Below, piece by piece: positions 165-5,028 of a stretch of 5,028 bases of DNA. Position 1 is the stretch's first letter. Each line of letters opens with the position of its first letter. The notes under the pieces were generated by a model. That model was not told the origin of the DNA. It made no database searches and saw only the letters and a list, made by a program, of their open reading frames with translations. Source of the stretch: Nitrososphaerota archaeon. Lineage in GTDB: Archaea; Thermoproteota; Nitrososphaeria; Nitrososphaerales; UBA57. The stretch is from positions 1-5,028 of the forward strand of contig JACAFS010000061.1 of assembly GCA_013378385.1 (NCBI GenBank). Direction: 5' to 3'. Both the position numbers and the translations under genes were made by a program.

Positions 165-1673
165 ATGCCATACATAAGAACAGAAGAAGGACTATCAAGA
201 AAATCCTTGAATGTCCAAGATGTAATGAACAAAATTCAAAGTGAAGACATTAGGTTTATAGATCTACAATTCACTGACGTACCTGGAAAATTACAACATG
301 TAACTGTACCGGCACATACAATTGATGCAGATGCGTGGACAAACGGTATACCAAAATTAGATGGTTCATCAATTAGAGGTTTTACTGGTATCAGTGAATC
401 AGACATGTTATTGAAACCTGATCCAAATACATTTGTAGTAATCCCTTGGTCTGATCCAAGTAAAAAATATGCTAGAGTTTTATGTTCAATAAATTGGGGC
501 ATGGGTCATCCTGTACACAAGGGAGGTCCATTAGCTAAAGACCCAAGAGGAATTGCACAGAAAGCTGAAGAATTCCTTAAAGAAAGTGGATATGACACCT
601 CATTCTGGGGTCCTGAATTAGAGTTCTTCGTTTTTGATGGTGTAACATGGGATGTAAATACACCTGCAAAAGGACAAAGTTATTCTATACGTAGTAAAGA
701 AGCTGCTTGGAAGCCAGGTGGACCAGCTACTGAACAAGGTTGCGGAAAAGGTGGAATAAACGTTCCGATTAGACATAAAGAGGGATATTTCCCAACAACT
801 CCTCAGGATACGTTGATGGACTTTAGAAATGATGCTGTAGCTCATATGGAAGATTCTTTCGGAATCATTGTTGACGCTCATCACCATGAAGTAGCAACTG
901 CAGGACAATGTGAGATCAACATGATGTATGATACATTGGTAAACCAAGCAGACAGCGCTCAATCATTCAAATATGTTGTCAAGAATGTCGCACATCAGAA
1001 AGGCATGGTTGCAACTTTCATGCCAAAGCCATTAGTTGGTGATAACGGCTCAGGGATGCACTGTCACCAGAGTATTTGGAAGGATGGAAAGAACAGATTC
1101 TATGATGAGAATGATGAACATTCAGAATTAAGCCAGGAAGCAAGGTACTATATTGGAGGCATTATGGCTCATACAAGAGCATTAGCCTGTATTGTAGCGC
1201 CTACAACAAATTCATACAAGCGACTTGTACCTGGATTTGAAGCGCCTATCTACATAGCATGGAGTAGAAGCAATAGATCTGCAAATGTTAGAGTTCCAGT
1301 AAACATCAAGGGCAATGAAAATGCAAAGAGAATAGAATTCAGATGTCCTGATACAACTGCAAATCCATACCTTGCATTCCCTGCAATGTTATGTGCAGGA
1401 CTTGATGGAATCAAGAACAAGATAGATTGTGGAAATCCAGTTGATGAAAACATCTATACGCTTTCCGAGGATCGTAAACGTGAATTGAATATCAAATCTT
1501 TGCCTAGAGACTTGGCAGAAGCTGCTGATGCATTAGAAAGCGATCATGACTTCTTGAAACCAGTTTTCGATGGAGATCTATTGGAAACTATATTAGAATT
1601 CGCAAGAGATGCACACTTCGATGTTGCATCAAGAACTCATCCACATGAGTTCCAATTGTATTTCGATGTATAG
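165..1673 (+). CDS. glnA: Glutamine synthetase, type I (GlnA)
   Basis: The 502-aa ORF has the GS beta-grasp N-terminus (IRFIDLQFTDVPGKLQHVTVP). It also has catalytic-domain motifs: GPELEFFVFD, HHHEVATAGQCEI, KPLVGDNGSGMHCHQS, NSYKRLVPGFEAP, SNRSANVRVP, and the C-terminal HPHEFQLYFDV. The first ATG (165) fits the TATA spacing. An internal ATG at 225 (MNKIQSED...) is an alternative start that would remove 20 aa. Confidence 0.95.
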   Translation: MPYIRTEEGLSRKSLNVQDVMNKIQSEDIRFIDLQFTDVPGKLQHVTVPAHTIDADAWTNGIPKLDGSSIRGFTGISESDMLLKPDPNTFVVIPWSDPSKKYARVLCSINWGMGHPVHKGGPLAKDPRGIAQKAEEFLKESGYDTSFWGPELEFFVFDGVTWDVNTPAKGQSYSIRSKEAAWKPGGPATEQGCGKGGINVPIRHKEGYFPTTPQDTLMDFRNDAVAHMEDSFGIIVDAHHHEVATAGQCEINMMYDTLVNQADSAQSFKYVVKNVAHQKGMVATFMPKPLVGDNGSGMHCHQSIWKDGKNRFYDENDEHSELSQEARYYIGGIMAHTRALACIVAPTTNSYKRLVPGFEAPIYIAWSRSNRSANVRVPVNIKGNENAKRIEFRCPDTTANPYLAFPAMLCAGLDGIKNKIDCGNPVDENIYTLSEDRKRELNIKSLPRDLAEAADALESDHDFLKPVFDGDLLETILEFARDAHFDVASRTHPHEFQLYFDV

Positions 1674-2758: not shown

Positions 2759-3856
2759 CTATTTCGCATTGATAAGTGTGACTACGTCTTCGTCTTCTAC
2801 GATGTGCTTCTTGCCGACTTTTTGCCCTTTGAATTTAGCGCTTGTGCCCCATATGTACGCATAGCGAAAGTTCTTTTGGACGTCACGGTGGATCTTTGCA
2901 CAGATCTCTATGATAGATGAGTCTCGAGGAACAATAAGAGGTTCTTCATAGTCCGCTACCCCTCCCTTTGGCCTCAGGTAGATTCTTATCAAATCCAGTT
3001 GCTGGTATATTGCATCCTTAAGATCTTCTAGATTTCTGTCTTTGTCAGCAGATATAGGTATAAAGTCGGTTCCGATTTTGGATTTTATCGCATCCATTGC
3101 TTTCTTGTCCACCAAATCGACCTTGTTGAGTATGGTTACTGAGTTTATGTAGACACGATTTCCTGAGATAACGTCTATGAATTGCTCCGTGGTTATCGGT
3201 TCGGGAATGAACACTCTCGCATGGTGAATCTTGTTGATGCGCAGAATTCCACCGATCAATGTGTTGGAGATTGATTCAGGGACGAGGTTTGTTATCTGGA
3301 TTCCTCCAGAGCCTTTTTTATCGACTGTGATGTTCGGAGGTTTCTGATCAAGGCGAATTCCTATTTGTGCAAGTTCATTTCTTAGCAGTTCTGTTTGGTC
3401 AGGCTTGAAGACATCGACAACCATGATGACGAGGTTTGAAGTTCTTGCAACGGAAAGAACTTTTTTTCCGAATCCCTTTCCTGATGCAGCGCCTTTTATG
3501 ATACCTGGCAAGTCGAGTATCTGAACTTTTGCTCCGTTGTAAGTCATCGTACCTGGAACAACGTCCAGTGTCGTGAAATCGTATGAGCCGATCTTGGAAT
3601 CTGCACCGGTCAGATTGTTCAGCAGCGTTGATTTACCTACACTTGGAAGACCGATGATAGACACAGTTGCGTCACCGCTACGTCTTACCGAATAGCCGCC
3701 GGTAGATTTACTGGCACGTCCTGATTTCTCTTCCTGCTCCTGCTTTAGTCTTGAAATTTTCGCACGGAGAAGACCGACATGGTGATTAGTAGCCTTGTTG
3801 ATCTGCGTTCGGCGAATCTCATCCTCGATCTCTTTTATTCTTTCAGGAACTCCCAT
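2759..3856 (-). CDS. DRG-family (developmentally regulated GTP-binding protein, Obg-like) GTPase with C-terminal TGS domain
   Basis: The 365-aa ORF has the DRG-type N-terminus IKEIEDEIRRTQINKATNHHVGLLRAKISRLK. GTPase motifs are G1 GLPSVGKSTLLN, G3 DLPG and G4 NKVD. The C-terminal TGS-like region is RIYLRPKG...YAYIWGTSAKFKGQKVGKKHIVEDEDVV. This family is archaeal/eukaryotic. Confidence 0.9.
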   Translation of the reverse strand: MGVPERIKEIEDEIRRTQINKATNHHVGLLRAKISRLKQEQEEKSGRASKSTGGYSVRRSGDATVSIIGLPSVGKSTLLNNLTGADSKIGSYDFTTLDVVPGTMTYNGAKVQILDLPGIIKGAASGKGFGKKVLSVARTSNLVIMVVDVFKPDQTELLRNELAQIGIRLDQKPPNITVDKKGSGGIQITNLVPESISNTLIGGILRINKIHHARVFIPEPITTEQFIDVISGNRVYINSVTILNKVDLVDKKAMDAIKSKIGTDFIPISADKDRNLEDLKDAIYQQLDLIRIYLRPKGGVADYEEPLIVPRDSSIIEICAKIHRDVQKNFRYAYIWGTSAKFKGQKVGKKHIVEDEDVVTLINAK

Positions 3857-3927
3857 GTTGACTTTACTAATGATAAAATCAGATAAAAACGTGAAGATTC
3901 ATATTTCAGGAATTTCAAGATACAGTT
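3857..3927. promoter_or_regulatory. Divergent promoter region for the DRG GTPase (-) and thioredoxin (+)
   Basis: The intergenic region is 71 nt. TTTTTAT on the minus strand (3889 to 3883) is centred about 30 nt from the DRG ATG (3856). ATATTT (3901-3906) is centred about 25 nt from the trx ATG (3928). Neither gene has a Shine-Dalgarno. Confidence 0.35.
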
Positions 3928-4251
3928 ATGTCAAAGATTATACATTCAAGCGAAAGCTCATTCGGAAATGATGTGCTACAGTCAAAGTTACCGGTTATGG
4001 TTGATTTTTGGGCAGAATGGTGCGGTCCATGTCGTGCAATTGCCCCGGTTTTAGAGGAATTATCAGAGGACTATGATGGCAAGGCCCACATAGTCAAGAT
4101 CAATGTAGACGAGAACGGAAAGCTTGCTTCAGACTATCAGATACACGGAATTCCCTGCCTTGTGATATTCAAGGACGGAAAGGAAGTGGAACGAGTGACC
4201 GGCGCTGGAAGCAAGGAAGTCTACGCTAAGAAATTAGAACCGTTCGTTTAA
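3928..4251 (+). CDS. trxA: Thioredoxin
   Basis: The 107-aa ORF has the canonical active site [10 protein letters not shown], the cis-Pro region [12 protein letters not shown], and typical thioredoxin length and layout. Confidence 0.93.
4175..4251 (+). repeat. Left copy of an imperfect direct repeat; this copy is the functional 3' tail of trxA ([25 protein letters not shown])
   Basis: Hand alignment to 4748-4820. The core 4213-4251 vs 4782-4820 matches 34/39. The weaker extension covers ACGGA, AAGGAA, CGA and AC-GGC blocks. It needs two 1-nt insertions and one 6-nt deletion in the right copy. Overall about 56 of 71 aligned columns match. Confidence 0.75.
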
Positions 4252-4264
4252 TTAGAATTAAATA

Positions 4265-4765
4265 ATGATATACAAATTATATTTTGATGGTTCTTGTAAA
4301 TACAAGAACGATGGTTCTTGCGACATGGGCATGGGAGCGGTTGTTTTAGATTCCAGGAATAATATTGTATATGAACAAGGATGGAACACACCTGCATATG
4401 ATCATAAAGACGACAATGGTATTTTGTCGAATAATGTTGCCGAGTATCAAGCTTTATTTCGCGGATTAGATGCACTTTCTGTAAAACGTCCTGATGGGAT
4501 ATCCGAATTAAGAATTTATGGCGATTCCAAATTAGTTATTGAACAAGTGCAAGGTAATTGGAAAGTTAAAGCAGCCCACTTGAAGAAATATAGAGATTCA
4601 TGTGTAGCGCAAATAAAATTATACGAGAAAGAAGGATGCAAGGTATCCTTGGAATGGATTCCTAGAGAACAAAATAAACCGGCGGATAGACTTGCGCAAA
4701 ATGCAGCAGATGGAATGGAAAGACATTCAAATCAACTACATGGTGAAACGGATAAGGAAATTTAG
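4265..4765 (+). CDS. rnhA: Ribonuclease HI, archaeal type 2 / RVT_3-like RNase H domain protein
   Basis: The 166-aa ORF has DEDD-type motifs in order: YFDGSC (Asp), NNVAEYQAL (Glu), IYGDSKLVIEQVQGNWK (Asp) and NKPADRLAQNA (Asp). It has no basic protrusion and resembles the small Sulfolobus/Halobacterium-type RNase HI. ATG 4265 is the first in frame, with an in-frame TAA at 4259-4261. It starts only 13 nt after the trx stop. Confidence 0.85.
   Translation: MIYKLYFDGSCKYKNDGSCDMGMGAVVLDSRNNIVYEQGWNTPAYDHKDDNGILSNNVAEYQALFRGLDALSVKRPDGISELRIYGDSKLVIEQVQGNWKVKAAHLKKYRDSCVAQIKLYEKEGCKVSLEWIPREQNKPADRLAQNAADGMERHSNQLHGETDKEI
4286..4320 (+). repeat. Perfect 11-nt direct repeat GATGGTTCTTG, two copies with a 24-nt period, inside the rnhA 5' end
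   Basis: GATGGTTCTTG occurs at 4286-4296 and 4310-4320. Both copies are in frame and each encodes DGSC (FDGSCKYKNDGSCDMG). Confidence 0.8.
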
Positions 4766-4820
4766 CCGATATACTGGCAAAAAGGAAGTCTACGCTGAGA
4801 AACTAGAGCAGTTCGTTTGA
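4748..4820 (+). pseudogene. Displaced thioredoxin 3'-end relic; right copy of the direct repeat. It encodes ...TGKKEVYAEKLEQFV* in a frame with no thioredoxin body upstream
   Basis: AAGGAAGTCTACGCTGAGAAACTAGAGCAGTTCGTTTGA (4782-4820) compares with AAGGAAGTCTACGCTAAGAAATTAGAACCGTTCGTTTAA (4213-4251). Both end in a stop codon at the same aligned position. Differences include synonymous changes (TTA/CTA, GAA/GAG) and replacements (K/E, P/Q). The left part (4748-4772) overlaps the RNase H 3' end and is less certain. Confidence 0.75.
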
Positions 4821-4915
4821 GATTATTAGTGTGGGCATAATGCTTTTCTAAATTAAACATTTGAAGTCTTCGCCTCCTTTAAATTTTTAATGTTTGTTGT
4901 TTTAGTGAAAATGTA

Positions 4916-5028
4916 CTATACTTTCTTGAAGATTAGTTGTTTTGTTAGTACGTCAATCTGATCAATCTCATCTATTATTAATTCACGAGAATTGGATCTT
5001 ATTTGACCTATAGATGAGCTTTTGGACA
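4916..5028 (-). CDS. Possible 3' end of an unidentified minus-strand gene running off the window (partial)
   Basis: The minus-strand frame is open from the window edge (first full codon at 5026) to TAG at 4918-4916. It reads SKSSSIGQIRSNSRELIIDEIDQIDVLTKQLIFKKV*. It is convergent with rnhA, with T-rich tracts between them. At 36 codons with no recognisable motif, this is weak. Confidence 0.3.
   Translation of the reverse strand, partial: SKSSSIGQIRSNSRELIIDEIDQIDVLTKQLIFKKV

Follow-up and report, generated by a model that had tools for sequence, protein, structure and literature searches.

The stretch of DNA analysed here, 5,028 nucleotides (nt) of contig JACAFS010000061.1 and called the window in what follows, is a low-GC thaumarchaeal genome fragment, with Nitrosopumilales/Nitrososphaerales metagenome-assembled genomes (MAGs) as its closest database genomes, and in it a thioredoxin gene (trxA, or trx for short) and a gene for a type 1 RNase H are followed by a second, bodiless copy of the thioredoxin 3′ tail, referred to as the relic. 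The relic is probably an orphaned thioredoxin 3′ end that forms the left boundary of a hypervariable slot for islands between the RNase H gene and a convergent gene, Z, and that was created by an old illegitimate join and has since been reused for island swapping. The original prediction for this locus had taken the duplicated tails as the footprint of RNase H arriving in trxA as a single-gene insertion. This is not supported, since 27 contigs keep RNase H without a relic; of the accompanying view of the repeat as a recombination scar, one part stands, namely that the scar is genuine and compatible with homology-facilitated illegitimate recombination, and the other, that RNase H is the inserted cargo, is not borne out. 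We infer that RNase H is a resident, not cargo, and that the relic has no function of its own except as homology for recombination.

The repeat consists of the 3′ tail of the working trx gene, ending in TAA (copy 1; 4205-4251, plus strand), and of the orphan tail GKKEVYAEKLEQFV, ending in TGA and lacking a gene body (copy 2, the relic; 4775-4820, plus strand). Without gaps, positions 4205-4249 and 4774-4818 match at 38 of 45 bases (84%), and the two copies including their stop codons at 39 of 47; the 34/39 match given earlier for a 39-nt core was reproduced. The original prediction had called for an alignment against shuffled controls, and by that measure the repeat is real: its local alignment scores 55, against a mean of 20.7, a standard deviation of 1.9 and a maximum of 28 for 300 dinucleotide shuffles (rest of the window, both strands). 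Two of the earlier dimensions had to be revised. For an extension of the repeat to 77 nt, which would pair 4175-4204 with 4748-4773, the shuffles give p ~0.06, short of significance, the extension stretch being plain RNase H 3′ end that is present also in relic-free relatives, and the DNA between the copies, put at about 496 nt, measures 522 nt (4252-4773), made up of a 13-nt spacer, the 501-nt open reading frame (ORF) of RNase H and 8 nt.

The trx reading frame is kept in both copies, the second reading (T)GKKEVYAEKLEQFV followed by a stop, and no trx body is present upstream of it in the window, both as predicted; its frame differs from that of RNase H. The relic is a non-functional tail, and it resembles the trx tails of other lineages (42/47) more closely than the window’s own (39/47). 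The tail of copy 1, KKLEPFV, is particular to the window’s species, where it occurs in conspecifics with and without the relic, and is a derived, species-specific tail. As to which tail matches the trx of relatives lacking an insertion, EKLEQFV, the relic’s version, is the usual tail of relatives, and these all carry RNase H. The relic also has K (G-K-K, GGCAAAAAGG) where the listed trx homologues mostly carry S or T, a decayed codon.

The orthologous trx loci used for comparison were drawn from many sources and comprise 148 loci other than the window, reaching up to 10 kb either side of trx; a GTPase-based genome scan gave three relatives and a trx-based metagenome scan one close relative, and in one GTDB genome record (L005) a masked run of N at 9538-9836 breaks trx, whose body was left out of the comparison. 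RNase H lies downstream of trx in 31 contigs. In 27 contigs, from the same species and sister lineages, trx and RNase H are followed directly by the convergent, 165-amino-acid (aa) gene Z, and the relic is found in none of the 27. Gene Z has an HEYLH motif and a stop codon that overlaps the RNase H stop codon, and it matched no Pfam family. The order trxA, 13 nt, RNase H, Z is the commonest arrangement in the clade. Relic-free conspecifics (L087-L092, L095) encode an identical trx protein in DNA 97.5-99.5% identical to the window, and all relic-free alignments to the window run from its left end to exactly 4773/4774 and then stop.

What remains of Z in the window is a 13-nt remnant of its 3′ end, TTAGCCGATATAC (4762-4774, minus strand), comprising the stop codon, the last three codons (Y-I-G) and one extra base. 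In the 27 contigs the same 13 nt continue GACAT[GA]CTAGAC... into full Z, the rest of which is absent from the window. The join is non-homologous (4774-4775, unstranded): ATATAC abuts TGGC, and the two parental sequences, ATATAC followed by GACATG in Z and GGTGC followed by TGGC in trx, have at most one base in common at this point (C4774). In this minority haplotype, then, the final 45-47 nt of trxA follow on from a position 13 nt into the Z 3′ end, in a join without homology. Because the Z remnant sits between RNase H and the relic, RNase H already adjoined Z before the junction formed, and the trxA-RNase H-Z arrangement is the older of the two; given 27 relic-free contigs with RNase H next to Z and homology that ends at 4774 and neither at 4205 nor at 4252, the variable unit is the relic together with the DNA to its right, not RNase H. 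Single-nucleotide polymorphisms (SNPs) between the window and conspecifics occur at a low rate up to 4774, and a recombination step at 4205, sought in these SNP patterns, was not found; against the nearest conspecifics (L087, L089 and L090) they are spread evenly across 4205. Empty sites, to which the original prediction had looked and in which trx would run straight into the DNA right of 4820, were not found among the compared loci. The locus thus combines an orphan in-frame 3′ end downstream of an intact gene, a non-homologous join and adjoining variable DNA, three of the features by which a scar of illegitimate recombination or C-terminal displacement is recognised.

The same junction, consisting of the RNase H stop, CCGA(T/C)ATAC and then the trx-tail relic, occurs in four non-identical contigs (the window, L001, L115 and L137), with a gap of 9 nt between RNase H and relic in all four and the relic starting at the same base. 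L001 (ENA ERZ27248688) has the structure of the window with 19 SNPs and one indel. L115 (ERZ908489, with run ERR598985 in its record name) belongs to a sister lineage about 96-97% identical, and its own trx tail is of the common EKLEQFV type; the first 37 bases of its relic (counted from C4774) are identical to those of the window, GGCAAAAAGG included, and the last 10 and everything downstream differ, a break such as a crossover within the relic leaves. L137 represents a lineage that shares only about 72% core-gene identity with the window and has the gene order trx, an eRF1-like gene, RNase H; even so, window positions 4258-4816 align to it at 90% identity, ungapped, right through the junction. 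To the right of the relic, the DNA differs between the window, L115 and L137. The junction is therefore common to at least three lineages, with different cargo after the relic in each, and probably goes back to a single origin from which it spread across them. The carrier contigs all end 32-520 nt past the relic. The gene after the relic in L137 had been labelled an HNH nuclease by eye, a label dropped for want of Pfam support.

The DNA right of the relic in the window, island Y (4821-5028, unstranded), is strain-specific and AT-rich, with a GC content of 27-30% right of 4821 compared with 36-49% to the left, and continues to the end of contig L001. It had no match in any of the 148 other loci by blastn or tblastx, and an exact 23-nt island Y pattern gave no match in viral and metagenome contig collections. 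The 3′ end of an ORF (4915-5028, minus strand) runs off the window; 118 aa of it are visible in L001. These last 118 residues match the PADLOC profile REase_MTase_IIG (E 8e-5) at profile positions 985-1079 of 1100, and nothing in Pfam or NCBIfam; as a query against a 5.8-billion-protein collection they returned no homologues. By this profile match, the ORF resembles the C-terminus of a type IIG restriction-modification protein. A search for the far end of the island through Z homologues and their contexts returned only standard layouts or sister-lineage layouts with the HerA island described below. The earlier remark that no integrase or transposase is visible was borne out and extended: neither the window nor L001, the 1.4-kb and 3.5-kb inserts of L007 (see below) or the other island fragments examined showed an integrase, transposase or recombinase, a negative that covers Y only to the end of L001, such that a distal integrase could lie beyond.

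Comparable scars occur elsewhere in the slot. In the P0023 lineage, whose trx is 71% identical, all contigs that encode the identical trx protein P0023 have the order trx, first tail, mini-ORF MDGCKCGGTCDCGSS and, beyond an AT-rich stretch that does not vary, a second trx tail, of which the 3′ part and the downstream DNA come in at least seven variants; the variant tails NKII, NQVI and EQFV match trx tails of other lineages. Most long contigs of this 71% lineage end 180-290 nt past trx, as expected of a site that varies within populations, and RNase H next to trx is absent in most of its variants, with L121 beginning an apparent RNase H. In a 58% lineage, the trx neighbourhood is altogether different. 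In L007, a 1.4-kb insert with an eRF1-like gene and the mini-ORF is flanked by a 23-nt trx-tail repeat, and a 3.5-kb island by an 80-nt direct repeat (89%) of the Z 3′ end, at 12243-12322 and 15743-15822. This island codes for a HerA-like ATPase of 721 aa, matched by PADLOC (E 5e-11) and, in L130, by Pfam DUF87, and for a partner of 317-341 aa, and is found also in L130, L134 and L135; the Z-tail repeat around it is the mirror image of the trx-tail scar. In L093, of the window’s own species, unrelated DNA takes over 8 nt past the trx stop and runs for 132 nt to the end of the contig (10325-10456). The trx-Z interval is therefore a hypervariable slot, in which RNase H is a fixed occupant only in the window’s genus-level clade.

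Some minor features of these loci may be recorded here. To the eye, the beginning of the L093 ORF is similar to a gene of another lineage, the one downstream of the second trx tail in L109/L122. The mini-ORF, MDGCKCGGTCDCG[G/S]S, has 15 codons, is cysteine-rich, has a strong GAGGTG ribosome-binding-like motif and lies between the working and second trx tails, at 11637-11684 in L007 and about 60-110 nt past the trx stop in L108/L116, L109/L122, L110/L124, L117-L121 and L125. Its DNA is near-identical across lineages with trx only about 71% identical, matches no Rfam family and is absent from the window, and the peptide looks metallothionein-like or like a leader peptide. Scans of viral contigs for the mini-ORF and the trx-tail core gave no matches. 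In a sister lineage (L098, 10325-10429, and L099-L107) the trx-RNase H spacer is 105 nt, compared with 13, and ends in GAAATTTAAAAAAATG, the same deleted tail remnant that stands ahead of RNase H in L007 and L121, which suggests that an older, more decayed trx-tail copy lies there.

The structure of the window could have arisen through one illegitimate join between a trx-RNase H-Z haplotype and a haplotype with an island directly downstream of trxA, possibly by homology-facilitated illegitimate recombination with its homologous anchor on the far, unseen side, or else through a 569-bp tandem duplication whose second copy would have been overwritten later; a search after the relic for a remnant of a second RNase H, as a test of the duplication, gave no similarity above shuffles in the window or L137. 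The relic would then have become a short homology patch at which incoming DNA of the composition trx tail, island and Z, from other strains or lineages, recombines, and such recombination would swap the island and keep RNase H. The cargo now in the window would accordingly be one such arrival, AT-rich foreign DNA with a type IIG restriction-modification-like gene. Taken jointly, entry of an island into an RNase H haplotype and the duplication route are the directions we favour, with somewhat better than even confidence, because the relic-free state is both the majority and the older one, the relic, which L115 has in common, is already decayed, and it is the DNA on the right that varies.

Several points weigh against this account. 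The final structure is symmetrical, and reads equally well as a unit of tail, RNase H and 13 nt of Z placed into a trx-island haplotype, a direction that L093, a conspecific haplotype with an island straight after trx, keeps alive. A donor haplotype with full trx leading into Y was not found among the compared loci. The right end of island Y was not reached, as L001 stops at 5273 and no other contig with Y was found, so that the Z copy and the homologous anchor expected beyond Y stay predictions. Finally, the left boundary of the relic falls within one base of the independent second-tail boundary in the P0023 and L007 lineages, the common position being the second base of the Ala codon that precedes G-[ST]-K-E-V-Y; this hints at site-specificity, a feature not expected of plain illegitimate recombination.

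Reversing the direction of transfer yields an alternative that we consider unlikely without discounting it. Here a strain with an EKLEQFV-type trx followed by an island would have received from a trx-RNase H-Z strain a 569-bp unit, comprising the first tail, 13 nt, RNase H and 13 nt of Z, with the anchor in the trx body and the illegitimate join on the right, by which the tail was duplicated and the trx-rnhA pair created in that haplotype. The product would be structurally identical to the arrangement observed, and haplotypes with an island right after trx are known from L093, a conspecific, and from the P0023 lineage, where the layout of first tail, mini-ORF and second tail itself likely stems from new DNA bringing its own trx tail upstream of an older one. 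L002, and it alone, also aligns to the window as a mosaic, in which the mismatches number 23 over 3840-4141, zero over 4142-4539 and 8 over 4540-4774, which points to a recent homologous exchange tract over the trx 3′ end and the 5′ half of RNase H. Yet the unit carries a piece of Z and was thus copied from a genome in which RNase H already stood between trx and Z, for which reason the relic would not be the footprint of the original arrival of RNase H even under this alternative. Moreover, no trx-relic-Y haplotype without RNase H was found among the compared loci, the SNPs against the three nearest conspecifics are even across 4205, and the decayed G-K-K codon common to the window and L115 implies that the relic was a pseudo-tail long before the window’s strain diverged.

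A site-specific system, which we rate as improbable, would make the last ~45 nt of trxA an attachment (att) site for integrative elements, or for integron-like cassettes of tail and cargo, and the repeats attL/attR-type copies. Island edges in several lineages do carry orphan trx tails, the starts of two independent junctions fall at about the same tail base, and 14 of 68 integrated elements of thaumarchaea target 3′-distal parts of protein genes (PMC6563490), although thioredoxin is not among the published thaumarchaeal targets (PMC6563490). Against this stand the lack of any integrase, transposase or recombinase in the sequences listed above and the position of the relic, which follows RNase H and is joined to a Z remnant, where attL would sit at the trx body. 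Nor do presence and absence concern the stretch enclosed by the repeats, as the 27 relic-free contigs keep RNase H, and the constant boundary in the P0023 contigs is explained by one ancestral junction and later crossovers inside the tail. As to an integron-like array, no integrase was found near trx in loci reaching up to 10 kb either side, and the repeats are coding-sequence tails, not imperfect palindromes. A broader conjecture, to which we assign an equally small chance, is that the last ~45 nt of trxA and the 3′ end of Z are dedicated landing pads of a cargo exchange, driven by a trans-acting or unrecognised recombinase, in marine ammonia-oxidising archaea, and that arrays of gene tail and cargo units with a fixed cut position may be built there, integron-like but with core-gene ends. 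The one observation in favour of it over ordinary recombination is the start of two independent orphan tails at the same nucleotide.

Erosion of a tandem trx paralogue after RNase H to its last 45 nt, which the original prediction had set against insertion, would account for a relic in frame with a stop codon, but is very improbable and already largely refuted: a second trx body at the relic position is found in 0 of the 31 RNase H contigs, the relic starts abruptly, at the same base in four of four carriers and directly after the Z remnant, and its nucleotides are of an orthologue-type tail (42/47 to sister-lineage trxA), not of a distant paralogue. Least credible of all is an assembly chimera of two strains, since, for all that the carrier contigs are short and come from metagenome assemblies, the same junction recurs in four non-identical contigs, of which L001, L115 and L137 are from different samples (the L137 record name pointing to a different assembly pipeline), and, with no more than one base in common across the join, the two sides could not have been bridged by a k-mer.

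Scars of this type are already known, and the present one is a further example, at an archaeal genomic-island hot spot. In the C-terminal displacement of Rhs and contact-dependent inhibition (CDI) genes, according to the account of Jackson et al. (2009) cited in PMC5361080, the incoming DNA is a new 3′ gene end with downstream cargo, and in the orphan effector-immunity arrays of the Vibrio cholerae type VI secretion system (T6SS), bodiless 3′ gene ends mark the borders of successive cargoes (Kirchberger et al., 2017; PMC5361080). The T6SS/Rhs orphans have been proposed to arise by two routes, homologous replacement, the commoner, and homology-facilitated illegitimate addition, the rarer (PMC5361080). 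These orphan 3′ ends are the closest analogues of the relic: as in both systems, a new 3′ end would come with cargo through homologous recombination in a conserved gene on one side and an illegitimate join on the other, leaving orphaned 3′ gene ends downstream as cargo borders. Unlike them, the locus described here involves a housekeeping thioredoxin instead of a polymorphic toxin, a 45-nt tail without a variable domain, unrelated cargo and an archaeal host, and its relic comes after a resident gene, RNase H, and abuts a piece of another gene, the convergent Z. Homology-facilitated illegitimate recombination has been defined experimentally in Acinetobacter, Streptococcus pneumoniae and Pseudomonas stutzeri, in work that PMC5361080 gives by reference. 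The likeness lies in a one-sided homologous anchor, another junction with little or no microhomology, the addition of foreign DNA and the possible duplication or deletion of recipient DNA; the difference is that the mechanism is a proposed one here, with the anchor side outside all contigs. These archaea are not known to undergo natural transformation.

The integrated elements of thaumarchaea use integrases or casposases and short att sites, with a median of 17 bp (PMC6563490). They share with the window the phylum, insertion at gene 3′ ends, direct target repeats and a surrogate stop codon that can come from the insert; in them, however, the repeats flank the element, whereas here the repeat is 45 nt, no recombinase is seen and it is not the repeat-bounded DNA that varies. 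Resemblances extend also to the islands of Prochlorococcus, with their partial tRNA repeats, and to tycheposon arrays, which lie at a fixed slot in a streamlined marine microbe, with strain-specific, partly defence-type cargo and degenerate partial copies of flanking genes at their borders. Such islands are tied to tRNA genes and tyrosine recombinases, unlike the present slot, whose repeats are protein-gene tails (trx, Z) and in which no recombinase was found.

More generally, that a small gene lies between direct copies of a gene tail does not show it to be the insert, and at this locus it is the relatives that place the variable DNA outside the repeats. The interval of trxA, RNase H and Z emerges as a population-level hot spot in uncultivated marine Nitrosopumilales-like archaea, at which strain-specific and partly defence-like genes (the type IIG-like ORF, the HerA-like ATPase) are exchanged even between lineages with about 72% core-gene identity, and short orphan gene tails appear to act as recombination homology. 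This offers a testable handle on accessory-gene turnover in genomes with few visible mobile elements, and the slot, which also carries the conserved 15-codon cysteine-rich mini-ORF, looks worth a population-genomic study.

The remaining genes of the window are those for glutamine synthetase (165-1673, plus strand), a ThiT/YuaJ-type thiamine transporter (1723-2241, minus), a small membrane protein (2274-2729, minus) and a DRG-type GTPase (2759-3856, minus). The identities given earlier to the two genes at issue were confirmed by Pfam. The trxA gene (3928-4251, plus; 107 aa) matches Thioredoxin (E 1e-30), and the identical protein is encoded on at least 23 public contigs; a one-base indel lies just 5′ of its start codon (window 3926 versus L001 3925/3926) and leads in L001 to a longer gene call of 126 aa, the window ORF beginning at 3928. 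The 13-nt spacer from the trx stop to the RNase H start (4252-4264, plus) occurs also in L002-L005, L087-L092, L097, L114 and L115. The RNase H gene (4265-4765, plus; 166 aa) matches RVT_3 (4e-16) and RNase_H (5e-9), both beyond the Pfam cut-offs; its closest solved relatives are the Rv2228c N-domain (3hst, 1.7e-15) and Sulfolobus tokodaii RNase HI (2ehg/3aly, ~4e-14), and D8, E60, D87 and D141, read by eye, lie in the catalytic acidic motifs expected for type 1 RNases H. An Rfam scan of the window and L109 matched no family.

Within the 5′ coding region of RNase H (4287-4312), a 12-nt inverted repeat, ATGGTTCTTGTA / TACAAGAACGAT, with arms 92% complementary and 2 nt apart, is kept in relatives and codes for the near-duplicated peptide DGSCKYKNDGSC. 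In the conspecific contig L095 (1310-1810) RNase H is called as two ORFs, of 93 and 61 aa, which suggests a frameshift or pseudogene and that RNase H may be dispensable. In several lineages (L137 2222-3334, L007 10345-11457, L146 8086-9198) the eRF1-like protein mentioned above, of 370 aa (Pfam baeRF_family10 / eRF1_2), is encoded in the trx-RNase H interval or close by; it is missing in the window’s clade. Lastly, L007 carries between the membrane protein and GTPase genes a 3.7-kb block (5086-8833) with genes for inositol-1-phosphate synthase, inositol monophosphatase and CDP-alcohol phosphatidyltransferase, a combination that suggests di-myo-inositol-phosphate synthesis, and L146 has directly 3′ of trx (5609-8064) genes of the same Pfam families, for inositol-1-phosphate synthase and a nucleotidyltransferase/CDP-alcohol phosphatidyltransferase.

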